Origin: Candidatus Tectimicrobiota bacterium
Lineage (GTDB): Bacteria; JACPUC01
Assembly (NCBI GenBank): GCA_016192455.1
Contig: JACPUC010000011.1
Location: 1-64,000, forward strand
Direction: 5' to 3'
Length of the DNA: 64,000 bases
Shown: positions 6,170 through 52,955 of the stretch, piece by piece
Layout of the letters: each line of letters begins with the position of its first letter
Position numbering within the stretch: position 1 is the stretch's first letter
Position numbers and translations under genes: made by a program
Notes under the pieces: generated by a model
Database searches by the model: none
What the model was told of the DNA's origin: nothing
What the model saw: the letters and a program-made list of their open reading frames with translations, nothing else

Positions 6170-6412
6170 AGCGTCGTCCCATCCTGAGTTGGGGGGACGT
6201 GGGAATCTCCAGGCAGTTCCCCATGGGCCTGCGGCCCGCCCGCAAGGTCATGAAAATAAGCGGACACTTCTTTCTCCGCAGGCTTCCATCCCATCGACCG
6301 TTGGGGCGGTTCGCGAACCGCCCCTACCATCGGCATGCAAGGTACCGTGGAGCGAGGCGGTTGTCGGTGAGCATCCGTGTCGAGCGCTGGTTCCTTTGCC
6401 TACCTTCTCTGG
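6170..6412 (-). repeat. Composite intergenic repeat family B (contains REP hairpin)
   Basis: Reverse complement closely matches about 40410-40606. Confidence 0.8.
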
Positions 6413-7991: not shown

Positions 7992-8065
7992 CTTATTCCC
8001 GCTTGGCGCGTCGGCGAGGGGCTTGCCCAGGCGCGCGGAGCGGTTGAACAAACAAGGAGACGCCA

Positions 8066-8578
8066 ATGGACGAGAAGGTGAGCAGCCGTTTCTCGCGCCA
8101 GGGCCACGAGCTCACCGTGGTCGTCGAGGCGAAGGCGCTGGAGAAACAGCGCAAGGAGGCCGAGGTCACCCTCGTGGCGCCGCCGGGCCGGACCTTCACC
8201 CTGCACTGCGACGAGGGGGCCTACCTCAACGGCGACGACACCGCCCCCCCGCCCCTGGCCTTCCTCTCCGCCTCCGTCGGCTTCTGACTCCTCACCCACG
8301 TGTCGCTGTATGCGACCATGCTGCGCCTCAACCTCAAGGCCGCGCGCGCCAGGGTGAGCGCCAGGTTCCATGGCGAGGGCTCGGTGCGGGCGGAGACCGT
8401 GCTGACGCACTGCACCGGCGTGGAGACGACCTTGGAGCTGGAGTCGGAGGATGACCCCGCCCAGCTTGCCAAGCTAGCGCGCGTCGCCGAGGCGGGGTGC
8501 TACGTCATCCAGTCCCTCCGCCACCCCACGGAGGTGGCTTACAAGGTAAGCCTGAACGGCACGCCTCTGTCGCTGTGA
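8066..8578 (+). CDS. OsmC/Ohr-family selenoprotein (Sec at TGA 8285-8287)
   Basis: ORFs 8066-8287 and 8300-8578 are in frame; DEG..G.DTAPPPLAFLSASVGF-TGA-LLT puts TGA at the first OsmC Cys; second Cys in AEAGCYV; SECIS-like hairpin follows. Confidence 0.85.
8299..8320 (+). promoter_or_regulatory. Putative bacterial SECIS element
   Basis: CGT-GTCGC[TGTAT]GCGAC-C-ATG hairpin; 19 nt between TGA and loop; GT at loop positions 2-3. Confidence 0.7.
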
Positions 8579-8673: not shown

Positions 8674-9228
8674 CTACACCCGCCCTTTCTTCAGGAGGCA
8701 GAAGCCGTTGGACTCGACGAGCAGCGCGTGGTTGAACTTGCTGCGGAAGTTCTCGAAGGCGATCGTGGCGGTGAGTTCGACGAGCGCGGCGGGTGGAAAC
8801 TGCGCTTCGAGCTGCGCGAAGAGGGCGCCGTCCGCGTCCTGGTCGCTGCGGGTGATGCGCTCGGCGTAAGTGAGCGCCAGCTTCTCGCGGCGGTTGAAGA
8901 GGGGGCTGGCGGCATAGTCATGCACGGCGGCCACTTGCTCTTCACTCAACCCTTCTTGCATCCCACGGGACGCATTGATGTCCGCTCAGAAGGGGCAGCC
9001 GTTCAAGCCCGCCACGTAGGTGTAGATGAGGCTGCGCAGCTTCAGGTCGATGTTGCCCGCCTGCTCGATCCCCATGGTGAGCGCGGCGGCGCCCTTCAGG
9101 ATCGTTGGGCAGTAGCCCATGAGGCGGGTGGGATTGAGCACCGTGCCGAAGCGCGCCTCCTGCTGCCGCATCACCTCCCGCACCTCCGGCGCCGCCGTCT
9201 CGATGGTCAGCTCGCGTAGTCGTGGCAT
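8674..9228 (-). CDS. AhpD/carboxymuconolactone decarboxylase-family selenoprotein (CxxU, TGA 8988-8986)
   Basis: MPRL..VAGLNGCPF-TGA-ADINASRGMQEG.. in frame with 8674-8961 (REKLALTYAERIT..ELTATIAFENFRSKFN); GAGGAG RBS. Confidence 0.88.
8957..8974 (-). promoter_or_regulatory. Putative bacterial SECIS element
   Basis: TGCGTCC[CGTG]GGATGCA hairpin; 18 nt between TGA and loop. Confidence 0.7.
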
Positions 9229-9583
9229 CGTCTCCTCCTCTCTTCCCCTGGTTCTGCTCCGCCCGCTGCGTGGTTCCGCCGCGCGGCGCGCGGCGGCTGC
9301 TGCGAATATGGCGCCACGCATTCCTTGCCGAGAGCCCGGCTCTCCGCCGCTCCTATCATCTACTACAAAGTGTGCGTTCAGGCTACCGCGGCGATGCGCG
9401 ACGCGGGTCGACGCCAAGCTTCTCCGCGGCGGGCCCCGCGGCGCCCAGCGTTGACGCAGGCCGACAGTCTGCTACGATAGCGGCGCGGACGCCGGCGTCA
9501 AGGTGGGCTCGCAACGGCCTTCCTAGGCGCCTCGGCGTCGCTTCGCAGTCCTCGCCGTCCTCGAGACCTCAGCGTACGCTTCC

Positions 9584-19927: not shown

Positions 19928-20192
19928 CCTGGAAAAAAGAACCTCGAAGTGGTTGATTTCACGTGATGGCGAGGCTGACGTTCGTGCGGCCGGTCTCCTT
20001 CACCTCTGCGTGCTCTGCGCCTCCGCGGTTCAATGGAATGCACCGCGGAGACGCAGAGCACGCAGAGAAGGTAGGGGAAGGAACCGCAGACGGACGCGGG
20101 TTCACAGAAATATCGGTCGATGGCATGGAAGCCTGCTGAGAAAGAAGTGTCCGCTTCCTGGAAAAAAGAACCTCGAAGTGGTTGATTTCACG
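19928..20192 (+). repeat. Family B repeat bounded by a perfect 36-bp direct repeat
   Basis: CCTGGAAAAAAGAACCTCGAAGTGGTTGATTTCACG at 19928-19963 and 20157-20192; interior matches about 40290-40560. Confidence 0.85.
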
Positions 20193-29038: not shown

Positions 29039-29244
29039 CTGGTGTGCTGTTTCTCACCTGAGATCGCAGAGATGTGCGAGGGAGCCGCGCCCCCTCGCGC
29101 ACCCCGCCTTGTAGGGGCGGTTCGCGAACCGCCCCTACGGGAGTGGGGGGTGGGGGAGCAAGGGTCCCCCACAAAAACTTTCCCCCGTGTATGGCACAAA
29201 GAAGGCGTCAAATTAAGGATGCAACTTGTGCGACGTAACCCTAG
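29039..29244 (-). mobile_element. Family A MITE-like element (REP-hairpin variant)
   Basis: Imperfect terminal inverted repeats; CTAG at one end supplies the stop of the adjacent gene; colinear with 36079-36279. Confidence 0.7.
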
Positions 29245-38110: not shown

Positions 38111-38581
38111 TCACGGCGCGCGGGCGATCCACGTCTCCTCGAAGGGCGCCTTCGCCGCCCGCAGCATCAGGTTGATGGGGCAGTGCCGGCGCACCACGGC
38201 GGCCAGCTCCTCCACTTTCTCCTGCGGCTGCTCGGTGGTGATGGTGACGCGCAGCGTCACCTGCTGGAACCCCGGGTAGCTCTCCTCGATCCCCCCCAGG
38301 GCGCGGGGGTTCAACACTCCGTCCGCCTCGGCCTCCCAGGCGCTGTACTTGAGTCCCACCCTGCGGGCGTGAATGCGCGACATCACCGAGGTGCAGCTCA
38401 CCAGGGCCCCGAGGAAGTAGTCCATCGGCGCCGGCGCCTTGTCGGTGCCGCCCCGGTTGCGCTTCTCGTCGGTGCGGAACGGCGGGTAGTCTTCGGCGTA
38501 GACGAGGTTCTCAACACGGTCAACCCACACAGCCTTGACGTGCATGGTGAGGGCGCCGGGAATTGGTTCGATGCCGGGCAT
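38111..38581 (-). CDS. OsmC-family protein (Cys form)
   Basis: DE..GGTDKAPAPMDYFLGALVSC..RHCP. Confidence 0.88.
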   Translation of the reverse strand: MPGIEPIPGALTMHVKAVWVDRVENLVYAEDYPPFRTDEKRNRGGTDKAPAPMDYFLGALVSCTSVMSRIHARRVGLKYSAWEAEADGVLNPRALGGIEESYPGFQQVTLRVTITTEQPQEKVEELAAVVRRHCPINLMLRAAKAPFEETWIARAP

Positions 38582-38854
38582 AGGGTTTCCTCCCATCCAA
38601 CTCCAGCTTCAGGGCGCGGAGAGGCGCCGCTGTTCCAGACCCGACGAGGCGGCGCGCGGCGGCAACGGCAGGAGCAACGAGAGGTGCGCGCCCGAGCCGC
38701 GCCGTGAGCGAGCGCGCTCGTCATCCCTGGCGGCCGCGGGCAGGGGCCACCTGACCAGGACCTGCCGCGGCGCGGCTATCCTACACCGTTTCGTGCCTCG
38801 GGTCATGCCGGTTCGCGCCGTCGCGGCAGGCTGCTCGGCCGCCGGGTGGGCTGG

Positions 38855-39598
38855 CTACACCGCTGTCAGGTTGGTCAGGAAGGGGAAAGCCTGGAGGAGG
38901 TAGCTGGAGAGGATTGTCATGTAGTTGGTCACCATGAGGACGCCGATGAAGATGAGGAAGACGCCGCTGGCCGCTGAGACGAGCGGCATGTAGCGCCTGA
39001 TGCGGCTGAAGGAGGCGAAGGCCTTCTGCGTCACCACCGCTGAAGCGATGAAGGGGATGGCCAGGCCCAGGGAGTAGGCCCCCAGCAGCATGACGCCGGT
39101 GGTGAGCTTCTCCTGGGTGCCGGCGAGAAAGAGGATGGTTCCCAGCACCGGCCCGATGCAGGGCGTCCAGCCGGCGCCGAAGGCGGCGCCCACGGCGGTG
39201 GAGCCGATGTAGCCCGAGGGCTTGTTGTGGAAGTGGAAGCGCTTCTCGCCCATGAGGAACTTCAGCTTCAGCACGCCGGAGATGTAGAGGCCGAAGGCAA
39301 TGACGATAATTCCGGCGCCGAGCGTCAAGGCGCGCTGGTAGGCCAGGAGGAGCTGTCCGAGGAACGTCGCCGTGGCGCCGAAGGCGACGAAGATGAGCGA
39401 GAAGCCGAGGACGAAGGCGAGGGTATGCTGCAGGGCGAGCCGCATGTGGGTGCGCGTGGCGCCCTTCATCAGCTCCTCGTGCGACATGCCGGTGATGAAC
39501 GACAGGTACGAGGGAACCAGCGGCAACACGCAGGGTGAGATGAACGAGATGAAGCCGGCGGCGAAGGCCAGAAAGATAGAGACTTCGGGTGCAGCCAT
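38855..39598 (-). CDS. ccdA: Cytochrome c biogenesis / thiol-disulfide transporter CcdA
   Basis: SPCVLPLVP and WTPCIGP. Confidence 0.92.
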   Translation of the reverse strand: MAAPEVSIFLAFAAGFISFISPCVLPLVPSYLSFITGMSHEELMKGATRTHMRLALQHTLAFVLGFSLIFVAFGATATFLGQLLLAYQRALTLGAGIIVIAFGLYISGVLKLKFLMGEKRFHFHNKPSGYIGSTAVGAAFGAGWTPCIGPVLGTILFLAGTQEKLTTGVMLLGAYSLGLAIPFIASAVVTQKAFASFSRIRRYMPLVSAASGVFLIFIGVLMVTNYMTILSSYLLQAFPFLTNLTAV

Positions 39599-40269: not shown

Positions 40270-40606
40270 CCTCGAAAATAAGCGTCTACGTGGTTGATTT
40301 GATGACGTGACGGTGAGGCTGACGTTCGTGCGCCCGGTGTCCTTCACCTCTGCGCTCTTTGCGTCTCTACGGTTCAATGGAGTGCACCGCGGAGACGCAG
40401 AGGACGCGGAGAAGGGAGGGGAAGGACCCAGCGCTCGACACGGATGCACACTGACATCCGCCTCCGTCCACGGTTCCTTGCATGCCGATGGTAGGGGCGA
40501 TTCGCGAACCGCCCCTACGGTCGATGGCATGGAAGCCTGCTGAGAAAGAAGTGTCCGCTTCTTTTCATGACCTTGCCGGCGGGCCGCAAACCCATTGGGA
40601 ACTGCT
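40270..40606 (+). repeat. Family B repeat, longest copy
   Basis: Shares blocks with 6170-6412, 19928-20156 and 42428-42625. Confidence 0.8.
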
Positions 40607-40746: not shown

Positions 40747-41733
40747 TTACGACAGGCCCAGCAGCTTCTGCGCCGTGCCGCCGAGGATGGCTTGCTGCTC
40801 CGCCTCGCTGAGACCCAGGTTGCCCACCGACTTCATGGCCCCGGTGAGGTCGCCGATGCCGAACGGATAGTCGCTCCCCAGCACCATGTGATCGGCGCCG
40901 AAGAGGGCATGGGCGCAGCGCATGGCGGGATCGTAGAAGGAGACCGTATCGACGTACGCCCGGCGGAACGACTCCATCGGCGGCGCCTTCAGGTTGTTGC
41001 GCACCTCCGCGTAGTGGTAGCCGCGGTTCAGGCGTTCGGCGAGGAACGGCAGGGCGCCGCCCAGATGCGGGAAGACCACCTTCAGGGTGGGGAGCTGCTC
41101 GAAGAGGCCGTTGTACACCAGGGTGGTGAACAGGAGGGTGGTCTCGAACATGTAGCCCACCAGGGCGCCCAGGTGGTAGCGCGTCATCATCGGGTTCGCG
41201 GCCGGCAGGTTCGGATGGATGAAGATCGGCACGTCCAGCTCGGCGGCCCGCCGGAAGAAGGGGACGAAGCGCTCCTCGGCAAGCGAGACGCCGTTCACAT
41301 TCGAGAAGATGCCCACCCCCAGGAGGGCGCATTCCTTGACGGCGCGCGTCAGCTCCTCGCAGGCGGCATCCACATCCCGCAGCGGCACGCTCGCCAGACC
41401 GGCCAGGCGCCCGGGGTAGTCGCGCTGCACGCCGGCCAGGTAGTCATTGATGCGGCGCGCCATGGCGACGCCGTCGTCGAGGTCCATGAAGCTGATGCCG
41501 GGGCCGCCGAAGGTCAGGACCTGCGCATCGAGACCGGCGCGGTCCATCTTGCCGAGGCGGCTCTGCGGATTGAGGAGCGGCTCGCCGATCGGCCCGAAGT
41601 CAAAGCCGCGGTAGTAGAAGAAGGTGCGTCCCTGCTCGTCGCGCTCGTAGCGAAGGCCGTACTTCTCGCCATACTCATCCAGGTACTCGAAGTATGGCTC
41701 GAACCAGAAGTGGCTGTGGAAGTCGATGCGCAT
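40747..41733 (-). CDS. Amidohydrolase_2 family protein (ACMSD-like decarboxylase/hydrolase)
   Basis: IDFHSH, IFIHP, HLGGALPF, GSDYPF. Confidence 0.9.
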   Translation of the reverse strand: MRIDFHSHFWFEPYFEYLDEYGEKYGLRYERDEQGRTFFYYRGFDFGPIGEPLLNPQSRLGKMDRAGLDAQVLTFGGPGISFMDLDDGVAMARRINDYLAGVQRDYPGRLAGLASVPLRDVDAACEELTRAVKECALLGVGIFSNVNGVSLAEERFVPFFRRAAELDVPIFIHPNLPAANPMMTRYHLGALVGYMFETTLLFTTLVYNGLFEQLPTLKVVFPHLGGALPFLAERLNRGYHYAEVRNNLKAPPMESFRRAYVDTVSFYDPAMRCAHALFGADHMVLGSDYPFGIGDLTGAMKSVGNLGLSEAEQQAILGGTAQKLLGLS

Positions 41734-42306
41734 GATCTCCTCCCCCCGCTGGGCTTGGAACGTGGCTCCAAAGGCGTTCACCGGGCACGCGCGGCAGAAG
41801 CGCGCCGCACCTCGGAGCTGGCGCCTGCGCCGAGACGTCCTCCGCCGGGCAGGCCACGCACCGCCGCGGCGATGCCTCCGCGCGCCGTTCCACGAGTAGA
41901 GAGCATTCGCGGCTTGATCGCCGGCGCAAGCGGCCGGGGCACCCGCGCCCTCGCCCGCCCCGCGTCCGCCAAAGGGCGGCCCGGTGAGAGGACAATACGA
42001 GCCTGGCGCCGGGCTGTCAAGACATCCGGCGGCGCGCCCGACGACGACGAACGCGCCTACTCCCCGCGGCTCACGGGGGCGGCAAGGAATAGCCGGACAG
42101 GCGCCGTCGTTCTAGAAAAGGGTTGCGTAAGCACGGTGGTGCCTCTGGCGGTGGCTGTTTTCTATTCTATCTTCGAAGCGGTATCATGAGGTCTCGCGCC
42201 GCATGGGAGGCGCCCACCGCGAAGGAAGGAGGGGCGCCGCTGCGGGGCGAGGCTTGCAGCCCTGACACATTCCTGCACGCACAAGTAGAGAAGAGGAGAG
42301 ATCGAC

Positions 42307-42417
42307 ATGGGGAACTGGTGGAGCCTTGGCCTCGGCATCGCGCTGGTGGTCGGCGTGCTGCTCCTGCGCTGGCGCCTGGGCGTCGGCTGAAGCGTCGACC
42401 CGAAGGACTCCGTGTGA
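42307..42417 (+). CDS. Membrane micropeptide, candidate selenoprotein (27 aa, or 36 aa with Sec at 42388-42390)
   Basis: AGAGGAG RBS; MGNWWSLGLGIALVVGVLLLRWRLGVG-TGA-SVDPKDSV-TGA; SECIS-like hairpin after the first TGA. Confidence 0.6.
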
Positions 42418-42424
42418 GTCGTTC
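42402..42424 (+). promoter_or_regulatory. Putative bacterial SECIS element
   Basis: GAA-G-GACTC[CGTGT]GAGTC-G-TTC; 20 nt between TGA and loop. Confidence 0.5.
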
Positions 42425-42427
42425 TTA

Positions 42428-42625
42428 TCCTCTCCTTGCATCTCTGCGATCTCTGCCTCTCTGCGGTTCAATGGAGTGCACCGCCGAGACGCAGAGGGCG
42501 TCGAGGAAGCGTGATCCACGGATCGAGACGCATTTGCACGCCGATCAGTGGCCATCAGTGCTTACCAATGGTTCCTGGCGTCCCGCTTGGAGGGACGGTT
42601 CGCGAACCGCCCCTACGGGCGATGG
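42428..42625 (+). repeat. Family B repeat, partial
   Basis: CTCTGC..GGTTCAATGGAGTGCACCGC..GAGACGCAGAG plus REP hairpin. Confidence 0.7.
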
Positions 42626-43002
42626 TATGCCTGCCGGGCCTCGGCTTCATCCCTCGGTGACGGCAGCGCGCGGGTCGCGCCCGGTCGCCGGCATCTCCCC
42701 TCCACCGCGCCAGTAGCTCCTCGCTGCCACTCCTCGCTCTTCCCACGAACGAGCCGGCTGCGTTGACAGAACGCCGCCGCTGCTGCACCATTTGCTTCGT
42801 CCAGGTGATGACGTATCCGGTCCCACGGCAAGGAACAGGTCGTCCACCGTTCCAGCCTGCCGCGGCGAGCGGGTCTTCGCGGGCCGCGGTGCGCGGCGTT
42901 GCTCCATGGTTCGCACCGGGAGCCCGGAAGCCCGCGCCGCCCGGCGAAGGCATGCCTGGCCGGTCCTTATTGTTCAGCGAAGCATGACCACGAGGGGCAT
43001 GT

Positions 43003-44910
43003 ATGGCCACAGCACCCAGCCACAGTATCGACGCCTTGCTGGAAGCGCAGAAGGTGTACCAGCCGCCGCAGGCGATCCTCGCCCAGGATGCCATCATCAA
43101 GGATTGGGACGCCGAGTACCAGCGTTCGATCCGGCAACCCGAGGCCTTCTGGGAGGAGGAGGCCCGCGCCTTCGAATGGAGCAAGCCCTGGGAGAAGGTC
43201 CTGGAGTGGAACTATCCCTACGCCCGCTGGTTCGTGGGCGGGCAGACCAACATCACCATCAACGCCCTTGACCGCCACACTCGCACCTGGCGCAAGAACA
43301 AGGCGGCCCTCATCTGGACCGCCGAGGACGGCAGCGAGCGCATCCTGACCTATGGGCAGCTCCTGCACTGGGTGAACAAGACCGCCAACGCCTTGAAAAA
43401 CCTTGGAATCGTCAAAGGCGACCGCGTCTGCATCTACATGCCGCTGACGCCGGAGGGGATCATCACCATGCTGGCGTGCGCCCGTCTCGGCGCCATCCAC
43501 AACGTCGTCTACGCCGGCTTCAGCCGCCAAGCGCTGCGCGACCGCATCGTGGACGCCCAGGCGAAGCTCCTCGTCTGCGCCGACGCGAGCTGGCGGCGCG
43601 GCAAGGCGGTGGACTTGAAGGCGATCGTGGATGACGCCGTCGCCGGCCTCGACGTGGTGGAGACCGTCCTCGTGCACCGCCGCCGCCAGCCGAAGATCGA
43701 GCTGAAAGGCAGGGAGCGCGATTTCACCGACCTCGTCAGCGCCGCCTCCCACCACTGCGAGGCCGAGGTGATGGACGCCGAGGACCCGCTCTTCATCCTC
43801 TACACCTCCGGCACCACCGGCAAGCCGAAAGGCGTCGTCATGGTGCACGGCGGCTACATGGTCGGCACCACCTACCACGCCAGGGCGTTCTGGAACCTCG
43901 GCGACAACGACGTCTACCTCTGCACCTCGGACATCGGCTGGATCGTCGGCCACAGCTACATCGTCTATGCGCCGTTCTGCCTCGGCGTCACCTGTCTGGT
44001 GCGCGAAGGGGCCCCCGACTACCCCGACCCCGGAGTTTTCTACCGCCTCATCGAGCAGTACGGCGTGACGCGCATCTTCACCGCGCCGACCCTGGTGCGT
44101 ATGCTCATGAAGTACGGCAGCGACCTGGCCCGCCGCTACGACCTCTCCAGCCTGCGTCAGCTCACCTGCGCCGGCGAGCCGATGAACCCCGAAGCCTGGG
44201 AGTGGGCTTACGCCCATATCTGCGGCGCGGGGCACGCCTGGATGTGCGACAACATGTGGCAGACCGAGACCGGCGGGCCGCTCGTCTGCAGCCCCCTCAC
44301 CAAGCCGGGAAAGCCCGGCTGGTGCGGCCTGCCGACCATCGGCACGGTCGCCGACGTGGTCGATGGTCAGGGAAACTCGCTGCCGCCCGGCAAGGGAGGC
44401 AACTTCGTCATCAAGAACCCCTGGCCGCACATGTTCCGCACCGTCTTCGGCGACGCCAGCCGCTACGAGGAGTACTGGACCACCTTGCCGAACTGCTACA
44501 TGACCGGCGACATCGCCACCAAGGACCACGACGGCTACATCATGTTCCTGGGGCGCTCGGACGATGTCCTGAACGTCGCCGGGCACCGCATCGGCACGGC
44601 TGACGTGGAGAGCACCCTGGTGAGCCACCCGGCGGTGGCCGAGGCGGCGGTCATCGGCAAGCCGGACGAAATCCGCGGCGAGGCGATCAAGGCGTTCGTC
44701 ACCCTGGTCGCCAGCGAGAGCCCCTCCGAGGAAATGCGCCGGCAGCTCGTGCGCCACGTCCAGGAGAACCTCGGGCCGATCGCCGCACCGTCGGAGATCG
44801 ACTTCGTGGACAAGCTGCCGAAGACCCGCAGCGGCAAGATCATGCGCCGCTACCTGAAGGCCCTCGAACTGGGCGACGACCCGGGCGACCTGTCAACGAT
44901 AGAGGATTAG
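43003..44910 (+). CDS. acs: Acetate--CoA ligase
   Basis: YTSGTTGKPKG, WQTETGG, GRSDD, LPKTRSGKIMRR. Confidence 0.95.
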   Translation: MATAPSHSIDALLEAQKVYQPPQAILAQDAIIKDWDAEYQRSIRQPEAFWEEEARAFEWSKPWEKVLEWNYPYARWFVGGQTNITINALDRHTRTWRKNKAALIWTAEDGSERILTYGQLLHWVNKTANALKNLGIVKGDRVCIYMPLTPEGIITMLACARLGAIHNVVYAGFSRQALRDRIVDAQAKLLVCADASWRRGKAVDLKAIVDDAVAGLDVVETVLVHRRRQPKIELKGRERDFTDLVSAASHHCEAEVMDAEDPLFILYTSGTTGKPKGVVMVHGGYMVGTTYHARAFWNLGDNDVYLCTSDIGWIVGHSYIVYAPFCLGVTCLVREGAPDYPDPGVFYRLIEQYGVTRIFTAPTLVRMLMKYGSDLARRYDLSSLRQLTCAGEPMNPEAWEWAYAHICGAGHAWMCDNMWQTETGGPLVCSPLTKPGKPGWCGLPTIGTVADVVDGQGNSLPPGKGGNFVIKNPWPHMFRTVFGDASRYEEYWTTLPNCYMTGDIATKDHDGYIMFLGRSDDVLNVAGHRIGTADVESTLVSHPAVAEAAVIGKPDEIRGEAIKAFVTLVASESPSEEMRRQLVRHVQENLGPIAAPSEIDFVDKLPKTRSGKIMRRYLKALELGDDPGDLSTIED

Positions 44911-44982
44911 GGGGGATGAGGCAGGGAGATCGTGGCGCGAGGGCGATACGTGGCTCACCCACGCCCCCTGTCCCCCCGAGCC

Positions 44983-45010
44983 GTAGGGGCGGTTCGCGAA
45001 CCGCCCCCAC
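44983..45010. repeat. GTAG-type REP palindrome
   Basis: GTAGGGGCGGTTCGCGAACCGCCCC; other copies near 6300, 29111, 40491, 42589, 52858 and 57265. Confidence 0.85.
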
Positions 45011-45124
45011 GATTAGGGCTGCGCCTACCTGCCGCCTGTTCGCCGTCAGGCGGGGCAGGCAGGCGAGGGGGCAATGCTCCCTCGCTTCAAAACCTGCCCC
45101 TGCTCTGAAGCGGGGCCGGCGCCT

Positions 45125-52766: not shown

Positions 52767-52955
52767 AGCGTTATGTCTTAAGAGTTCGCAGCACATTTGA
52801 TGCGTTACAAGCTTTATTTCATGTGGGGGACCCATGCTCCCCCACACCCCCTATTCCGTAGGGGCGGTTCGCGAACCGCCCCTACCAGCCGGGGTGCGCG
52901 AGGGGGCGCGGCTCCCTCGCACAGTTTCGTCAACGAACTTAAAAGAGATGACACT
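52767..52955 (+). mobile_element. Family A MITE-like element (REP variant, divergent ends)
   Basis: Same internal modules as the 29039 copy; imperfect TIRs ..AGAGTTCG / CGAACTT..GATGACACT. Confidence 0.6.

Follow-up and report, generated by a model that had tools for sequence, protein, structure and literature searches.

Does the UGA codon at position 42388 of the stretch of DNA analysed here end a membrane protein of 27 residues, or does it encode selenocysteine (Sec) within a protein of 36? The stretch, hereafter the window, comprises the first 64,000 nucleotides of contig JACPUC010000011.1 from a Candidatus Tectimicrobiota bacterium (assembly GCA_016192455.1) and is part of the contig that we designate C6; the whole assembly amounts to 4.46 Mb in 31 contigs, with 66.8% G+C. 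The codon lies in a 1.2-kb spacer between an Amidohydro_2 gene and an acetyl/acyl-CoA-synthetase-like gene. The best explanation for the segment 42292–42424 is a self-contained micro-gene, and the 27-codon open reading frame (ORF) that it contains is, in our judgement, very probably a real and conserved one. On the decoding of codon 28 as Sec, which would give a 36-residue membrane-anchored selenopeptide, the features of the sequence leave us evenly divided.

Organization of the candidate micro-gene

All parts of the unit are on the plus strand. A Shine-Dalgarno-like (SD) motif, AGAGGAG (42292–42298), is located 8 nt upstream of an ATG at 42307. From this ATG, 27 sense codons (42307–42387; ORF 42307–42390 including the TGA) translate to MGNWWSLGLGIALVVGVLLLRWRLGVG, a single hydrophobic helix at about residues 4–20 (mean Kyte-Doolittle hydropathy over these residues, 2.23) followed by RWRLGVG. 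Codon 28 is the TGA at 42388–42390, a candidate Sec codon or a true stop. Reading through it would add a candidate C-terminal tail of eight codons, 29–36 (SVDPKDSV, 42391–42414), up to a second TGA (42415–42417) that would be the stop of the 36-codon reading. This second TGA falls within the loop and the 3′ arm of a hairpin, GAA-G-GACUC[CGUGU]GAGUC-G-UUC (42402–42424), which is either a candidate bacterial selenocysteine insertion sequence (SECIS; bSECIS for the bacterial type) or, on a rival interpretation, a 3′-end or terminator hairpin. The core of the hairpin, GACTC/CGTGT/GAGTC, occupies 42406–42420, and it is flanked across a G·G mismatch by GAA (42402–42404) and TTC (42422–42424).

An earlier sequence-only reading of the window had proposed an unannotated membrane micro-selenoprotein at this place. 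The ribosome binding site, the ORF with its transmembrane helix, the two TGA codons, the SVDPKDSV segment between them and the hairpin with its GAA/TTC extension are all present as that reading described them. Its figure of 20 nt, however, applies to the apical loop; counted from the TGA, the stem starts sooner, the 5-bp core at 15 nt and the extended form at 11 nt. A dispersed repeat some 200 nt long does have a copy right after the hairpin (42431–42636, no strand assigned), as had also been seen; this copy bounds the unit and is not part of it.

Coding signal of the 27-codon ORF

Codon usage was scored as a log-odds trained on 2,938 long ORFs with high G+C at third positions, with the remaining unmasked sequence of the genome as background. 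On this scale the ORF reaches +16.4 bits, whereas the two shifted frames score −15.7 and −22.4 and the three reverse frames −8.2, +2.9 and −42.0; 26 of its 27 codons end in G or C. Frame-specific G+C (0.93/0.77/0.47) is found only within about 42290–42420, the remaining spacer being without periodicity. By codon score the ORF is 205th of the 21,117 unmasked ORFs with 20–40 codons and any start, and 8th of the 509 intergenic ORFs of this size that begin with an ATG behind an SD, several of those ranked above it being visibly the ends of real genes. Two other origins of the signal were considered and rejected: a longer gene that the repeat had interrupted, as no coding periodicity is present beyond the repeat, and the antisense ORFs at 42184–42555 and 42162–42338, given the scores of the reverse frames.

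Comparison with a groundwater relative

Part of the region is contained in 15 public sequencing runs. Eight groundwater runs, from two other studies, carry 14–20% of the sampled words, which suggested a relative of this population. Four runs were mapped, and one contig each in runs X5 (618 nt) and X6 (439 nt) covers the spacer with identical differences; none of the 23 gap letters in the X5 contig is left unexplained. Runs X13 and X14 yielded essentially only the repeat and short GC-rich look-alikes, with no informative variation at the ORF, and X13 also covers a near-identical stretch at 42716–43200.

Among the differences listed, the leader (42163–42291, 129 nt) has 17 shared substitutions and six indel events, and the block 42292–42430 has eight substitutions and no indel, the indel-free stretch reaching from 42292 to 42440. 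Indels at 42283, 42286 and 42291 lie just upstream of the SD-to-ATG stretch (42292–42306), in which none of the 15 positions is changed and no indel has occurred. The 81 nt of the ORF carry four changes, three of them synonymous (L20, CTG to TTG; G25; V26) and one non-synonymous (G27S), corresponding to 0.136 synonymous (pS) and 0.018 non-synonymous (pN) differences per site and a pN/pS of about 0.13. A synonymous bias, without indels and behind an intact SD and ATG, is the pattern of a translated gene, and we hold a real gene to be very probable. On substitutions alone the numbers are small and the difference between ORF and leader is marginal (Fisher P = 0.06), as it also is for the whole block. 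At codon 28 this relative, the only one found, keeps the TGA; the second TGA and the frame between the two are unchanged as well. The hairpin is identical (0 of 23 positions changed, P ~0.04 at the substitution rate of the leader). The relative carries the repeat at this position too, lengthened by 14 bases at 42440.

These results bear on the possibility that there is no gene at all, and that a chance ORF in a GC-rich spacer overlaps a conserved block whose function is at the RNA or DNA level. GC-rich DNA readily gives "helices" rich in Leu, Gly, Val and Ala, no homologue of the peptide was found, and the marginal Fisher test against the leader would suit such an origin. A chance ORF would nevertheless have to account for a strong SD and an ATG that are both conserved, for 26 of 27 codons ending in G or C when the other five frames score between −42 and +2.9, for three synonymous substitutions out of four, for the absence of indels against six in the leader, and for the eighth place among 509 ORFs, several of those above it being pieces of real genes. 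We therefore regard the absence of a gene as improbable.

Selenocysteine machinery and Sec sites of the genome

The genome encodes a complete Sec machinery. A tRNA-Sec with anticodon UCA is located on contig C8, the SelB and SelA genes are adjacent on C23 (SelB-wing_3, 75.8 bits; SelA, 491.5 bits), and selD, on C3 (389.3 bits), itself contains one in-frame TGA. A lack of selA, selB or selC, which the sequence-only reading had named as a fatal objection to its proposal, is thus not what the genome presents; nor does the relative show the other objection that it named, a TAA or TAG in place of the TGA with no hairpin behind it.

A genome-wide scan found 59 TGA codons with a frame that looks coding both before and after them. 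Fifteen Sec sites were taken as genuine, on the basis of coding frames to either side, redox motifs (CxxU, UxxC, WUPYC, GCU) or a Pfam domain spanning the TGA. The two clear Sec codons that had been reported in the window do exist and are among the fifteen. One belongs to an OsmC-like selenoprotein gene (8048–8578, plus strand, Sec at 8285) with a VGFU motif and a UGUAU loop 19 nt after the TGA, the other to a CMD/AhpD-like selenoprotein gene (about 8674–9230, minus strand, Sec at 8988) with a CPFU motif and a CGUG loop 18 nt after the TGA. The two genes are convergent, and gene callers would split both. Outside the window, an AhpC/TSA-like gene with a WUPYC motif (C27:116801) has a CGUG loop in the element GAGAG[CGUGC]CUCUC. 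Probable selenoproteins include a secreted protein of DUF1573/Ig-like type, in which the motif is GCU and the UGA lies within the Pfam match (C20:52205–52747, TGA 52390), and two UxxC paralogues without a Pfam match (C25:22599–23624, TGA 23015; C30:50600–51574, TGA 50950) that we take, by motif, to recall reductase selenoprotein B. The sites at C4:28924 and C22:15285 probably belong to selenoproteins too; judging by motif, one is presumably ThiF/MoeB-like and the other pyridine-nucleotide disulfide oxidoreductase-like, with CxxxxU.

The hairpin as a candidate SECIS element

The published bSECIS model specifies an apical loop of 3–9 nt, a stem of at least 4 bp, a G at loop position 1 or 2, a distance of 16–37 nt from the UGA and a minimum free energy (MFE) of −7.5 kcal/mol or lower (PMC13188914). 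The hairpin lies within these limits, with its CGUGU loop, 5-bp stem, 20-nt spacing and centroid fold of −10.3 kcal/mol. Criteria derived from the genuine sites of this genome were also applied (loop 16–21 nt after the UGA, perfect stem of at least 5 bp, loop of 3–7 nt starting with [N]G[G/U]). With G-U pairs allowed they select 12 of 13 genuine sites and 88 of 1374 ordinary TGA stops, and with Watson-Crick pairs only, 10 of 13 and 30 of 1374; the candidate passes in both forms.

A hairpin with a CGUG loop and at least 5 bp, 14–23 nt downstream, follows 128 of the 110,450 TGA triplets of the genome, a background of 0.11%. When the 86 such sites with 20 open upstream codons were ordered by coding score, the candidate (16.8 bits) was among the top six and the other five were all genuine Sec genes, namely the AhpC/TSA gene with WUPYC, the CMD gene with CPFU, the two UxxC paralogues and the DUF1573-like gene with GCU. 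The sites ranked below these six resemble off-frame translations. In the five Sec elements with CGUG loops the loop lies 17–18 nt after the UGA, compared with 20 nt in the candidate, and the perfect stem has 5–7 bp; the C27 element has the same architecture of a 5-bp stem and a 5-nt loop as the candidate. The five genes differ from it in that they are long and have a Pfam domain across the UGA or a Cys beside it, and the candidate has neither. The likeness in spacing and YGT loop that the sequence-only reading drew with the two Sec sites of the window is borne out (UGUAU at 19 nt and CGUG at 18 nt, against CGUGU at 20 nt).

That reading had also cautioned that, with a repeat starting so close, the hairpin could be partly fortuitous. 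The repeat has 64 BLAST matches in the genome, 40 of them near-full-length copies. The hairpin lies outside it, since the left flanks of the 39 other near-full-length copies differ and the left flank of the 42431 copy is unique; an origin of the hairpin as part of the repeat was accordingly rejected. An alignment of four CGUG-type SECIS elements gave gaps inconsistent with the stems, and a covariance model of the hairpin only would hold too little information for significance in 128 kb. Rfam, at gathering thresholds, returned nothing in the window; three sub-threshold matches to miRNA models (E 0.2–4.7) fall in 41700–43100.

The eight codons past the TGA

Codons 29–36 score +5.3 bits, and each of the eight has G or C in third position. 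A score this high is found behind only 0.9% of 1220 ordinary TGA stops followed by eight open codons, and none of 127 TGA stops with an extension of 6–12 codons reaches the same value per codon; genuine Sec sites have a mean of 2.5 across the same eight-codon span. Past the second TGA the codon score drops to −8.8 over 20 codons. In the groundwater relative the tail scores 5.39, as well as which 24% of simulations with three random substitutions do.

Stop codon or Sec codon

The strongest alternative to Sec decoding is a plain membrane protein of 27 residues, in which the UGA at 42388 is a stop, the hairpin with its T/C-rich tail is a weak terminator or a stabiliser, and the coding character of the eight codons is a coincidence. 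The evidence for a real gene is equal under both. A number of observations speak for the plain protein or otherwise weigh against Sec, and they concern the peptide, the hairpin, the tail and the comparison with the relative.

As to the peptide, the 36-residue reading (with C for U) was searched against 1.84 billion representative proteins and gave two matches at E ≤ 0.001, both to long, internally repetitive proteins that align over and over through a short internal repeat. A Cys-containing form was looked for in these searches and none was found, and within its own genome the peptide matches only itself. A Pfam scan of the 27- and 36-residue readings returned 0 families at E ≤ 1 and an NCBIfam scan nothing, in keeping with the remark of the sequence-only reading that it recognised no family. 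The peptide contains no Cys and no known redox motif. Among the 1.84 billion representatives there was no homologue, and hence none of the alternation of TGA and Cys at codon 28 that the sequence-only reading had proposed to look for. At the DNA level, 42100–42430 gave chance-level matches to 40 other genomes, all of them kin at the level of the domain only; the genome is the sole member of its phylum among the genomes searched.

As to the hairpin, its fold (−12 kcal/mol) is matched or bettered by 77 of 200 shuffled sequences (z = −0.17), and its stem has only 5 bp, plus 3. The published bSECIS criteria are loose, passing 11 of the 13 genuine sites but also 279 of 1374 ordinary TGA stops. By chance, a coding frame, a TGA and a CGUG hairpin should coincide about once in the genome: the expectation is 1.22 where the upstream coding score is 7 or more (1,100 TGAs), 0.77 where it is 9 or more (694) and 0.33 where it is 12 or more (303). 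Several thresholds were, moreover, chosen after the candidate was known. The tail score and the hairpin are not independent evidence, since they have three of the eight codons in common; by a hand estimate, the independent weight of the tail is a likelihood ratio of about 3–4, not 10 or more.

As to the relative, the comparative evidence is that of one relative, seen in two runs (X5 and X6), and the substitution counts are those among the differences listed; the remaining substitutions fall, by our count, in the repeat and in the part of the leader that has diverged. In the 9-nt interval from the TGA to the hairpin there are three changes (V30 synonymous, D31K by two), against four in the 81-nt ORF (Fisher P = 0.02), and this interval evolves like the neutral leader. 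The only amino-acid changes flank the UGA, the residue before it included (G27S at −1, D31K at +3). The tail has a pN of 0.107 compared with 0.018 for the ORF, and a pN/pS of about 0.57 compared with 0.13. No part of the peptide is less constrained than the surroundings of the putative Sec. A true C-terminus with a neutral spacer and a functional hairpin behind it would account for this, and a loose tail bearing a lone Sec would do so equally well.

The plain protein would also give the hairpin a role at the end of the transcript, and it is the only terminator-like site flagged on either strand of 41700–43100. In a terminator consensus scan it has 5 pairs, 3 of them G-C, and the tail GTTCTTATCC with 5 T in 8 nt; the stem is short. 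Such hairpin-plus-T-run sites were found in sense orientation after 30 of 1200 genes, in antisense after 40 of 1200 and inside 13 of 1200. Because they are not enriched after genes in this genome, a conserved hairpin is not to be taken for a terminator by default, and the lineage may not rely on canonical intrinsic terminators. A hairpin that is not a SECIS element must, in addition, have matched the 20-nt spacing and the CGUG loop by chance, against the 0.11% background, and the codon score of the tail, in the top 1% behind ordinary TGA stops, is kept in the relative. The plain 27-residue protein is, in our view, a serious possibility that falls somewhat short of being probable.

Position upstream of the synthetase-like gene

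The spacer is bordered on one side by the Amidohydro_2 gene (40747–41781, minus strand) and on the other by the acetyl/acyl-CoA-synthetase-like gene (43003–44910, plus strand), which starts 600 nt downstream of the ORF. A position upstream of the latter gene and on the same strand is what one would expect of a selenium-sensing leader ORF, in which the supply of Sec-tRNA would decide between stop and read-through and thereby alter RNA folding and the expression of the synthetase-like gene. The SD region AGAGGAGAG (42292–42300) is complementary to CCUCUCCUU (42427–42436), and in the MFE fold of 42280–42445 it pairs with the CCUCUCC just after the hairpin. This pairing may mean nothing, however, because the fold of 42280–42445 is no better than that of shuffled sequences (z = −0.71). 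Between the ORF and the synthetase-like gene lie the 200-nt repeat and some 370 bases more, and the strong purifying selection on the helix sequence favours a functional peptide. Homologues of the synthetase-like gene were found at nine loci on genome contigs (best 70% identity) and seven on metagenome contigs (best 64%), none from a close relative. A hydrophobic, SD-led small ORF upstream was present at 0 of the 8 genome loci examined. We consider a leader ORF of this kind very improbable.

The nearest synthetase homologues, at 70% identity, are in metagenome-assembled genomes of Dethiobacter and Clostridia. Upstream of the amidohydrolase gene, about 320 nt (41782–42100) have a G+C content of 0.73–0.81 and no codon periodicity, and a good sigma-70-like promoter match on the minus strand (42020–41992) lies in this G+C-rich stretch. 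At 38111–39598, on the minus strand, a second OsmC-like gene stands beside a gene for a DsbD_TM/CcdA-type membrane thiol-disulfide transporter. This redox cluster is about 3 kb from the micro-gene and has no evident operon link with it.

Weighing of Sec decoding and proposed mechanism

The weight of Sec decoding was estimated from a prior of a few undiscovered Sec sites among the approximately 1,900 TGA-terminated genes, combined with likelihood ratios of about 14–40 for the hairpin geometry, 3–6 for the loop class, 3–10 for the tail score, 3–5 for the conservation of the hairpin and 0.3–0.5 for the variable neighbourhood of the UGA. Depending on the discount for after-the-fact thresholds, the posterior for Sec ranges from ~0.25 to ~0.9. 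Of the unannotated membrane micro-selenoprotein originally proposed, the gene for a small membrane protein is well supported; its Sec residue draws on the statistics of one genome and on one close relative, and we give it about even odds, less than the heading of that proposal implies.

If Sec is inserted, we envisage the following course. Ribosomes would begin at the ATG at 42307, behind the strong SD, and make one transmembrane helix, with the N-terminus probably outside and the C-terminus inside as the positive-inside rule (R21, R23) predicts. SelB carrying Sec-tRNA(Sec) would dock on the hairpin (42402–42424), whose CGUGU loop presents G and U at positions 2–3, 20 nt after the UGA. Sec would then be inserted at codon 28, and eight further codons would be read to the UGA at 42415, inside the hairpin. 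Ribosomes that do not recode would release the 27-residue helix. In the full product a short polar tail would place the only selenol at the cytoplasmic side of the membrane. Because the peptide has no cysteine, its role may be that of a redox or selenium-handling group that is tethered to the membrane and works with a partner, not that of a CxxU centre complete in itself.

The dispersed repeat

The repeat that bounds the micro-gene is modular, about 200 nt long, with a palindromic core GGTTCGCGAACC...CCCCTACGG. Further copies are found in the window at 40340–40531 and 19994–20058, and short palindromic cores at about 6287–6346, 29103–29141, 44981–45011 and 52856–52892. Most copies lie inside a longer composite element with conserved flanks, which the copy beside the micro-gene lacks, and tandem arrangements are also seen. 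All four mapped metagenome runs contain the repeat in abundance (depth 435–815 at 42572–42625).

Comparison with known systems

The peptide belongs to no known protein family. The discovery of prokaryotic selenoproteins needs Cys homologues and ORFs long enough to be called, and a 36-codon orphan is therefore invisible to it. Within the main text of a 2026 catalogue review, no transmembrane micro-selenoprotein is described, the word "transmembrane" occurring 0 times and "membrane" twice in other senses; a search of the literature for bacterial Sec in small ORFs or at the C-terminus, in the parts of the sources that were available, gave nothing comparable. If Sec is indeed inserted, the product would present a lone selenol tethered to the membrane, a type absent from the main text of that review, its gene would provide a natural bacterial SECIS running across a stop codon, and homology-based searches would be missing a class of micro-selenoproteins. 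On the conservative reading there is still a conserved, unannotated small membrane protein in a deep-branching groundwater lineage.

That a bacterial SECIS can work when it lies partly or wholly behind the stop codon is documented in E. coli for recombinant thioredoxin reductase (PMC10778597). As proposed here, a UGA near the end of the ORF is recoded there with an untranslated SECIS; the system differs in being engineered and not a natural bacterial gene. With natural SelB/bSECIS genes, of which E. coli fdhF is the prototype, the candidate shares the UGA, a stem-loop with G-U at loop positions 2–3, a spacing within 16–37 nt and an MFE below −7.5 kcal/mol, in a genome that has selA, selB, selC and selD. 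The 11 nt from the UGA to the extended stem of the candidate are also the spacing of the E. coli fdhF minimal element. Unlike these genes, the candidate has only 36 codons and a hairpin that runs across the stop into the 3′ untranslated region (UTR), and it lacks a Cys homologue, a partner Cys and a recognisable fold or family.

In size, the closest bacterial parallels are small single-helix membrane proteins and type I toxins of about 20–40 residues, such as TisB, AcrZ and KdpF. The micro-gene resembles them in its single helix and in being a stand-alone intergenic gene with a strong SD that annotation has missed, and it has no Pfam or NCBIfam match to them or to others. We know of no protein of this type that contains Sec.

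In architecture, the nearest likeness is with SELENOK and SELENOS, eukaryotic single-pass membrane selenoproteins with Sec near the C-terminus. The analogy is one of architecture only: one transmembrane helix, a short cytosolic tail and a lone Sec a few residues from the end. The two differ from the candidate in being eukaryotic, about 3–5 times longer and dependent on a 3′-UTR SECIS of another type, and they show no sequence similarity to it: Pfam, whose families for the two are SelK_SelG and Selenoprotein_S, gave no match at E ≤ 1. It is, in our estimate, an even chance that the micro-gene of this window encodes the smallest natural selenoprotein described so far, with 36 residues, no Cys and a SECIS straddling its own stop codon, and that it is a convergent bacterial counterpart of SELENOK and SELENOS.

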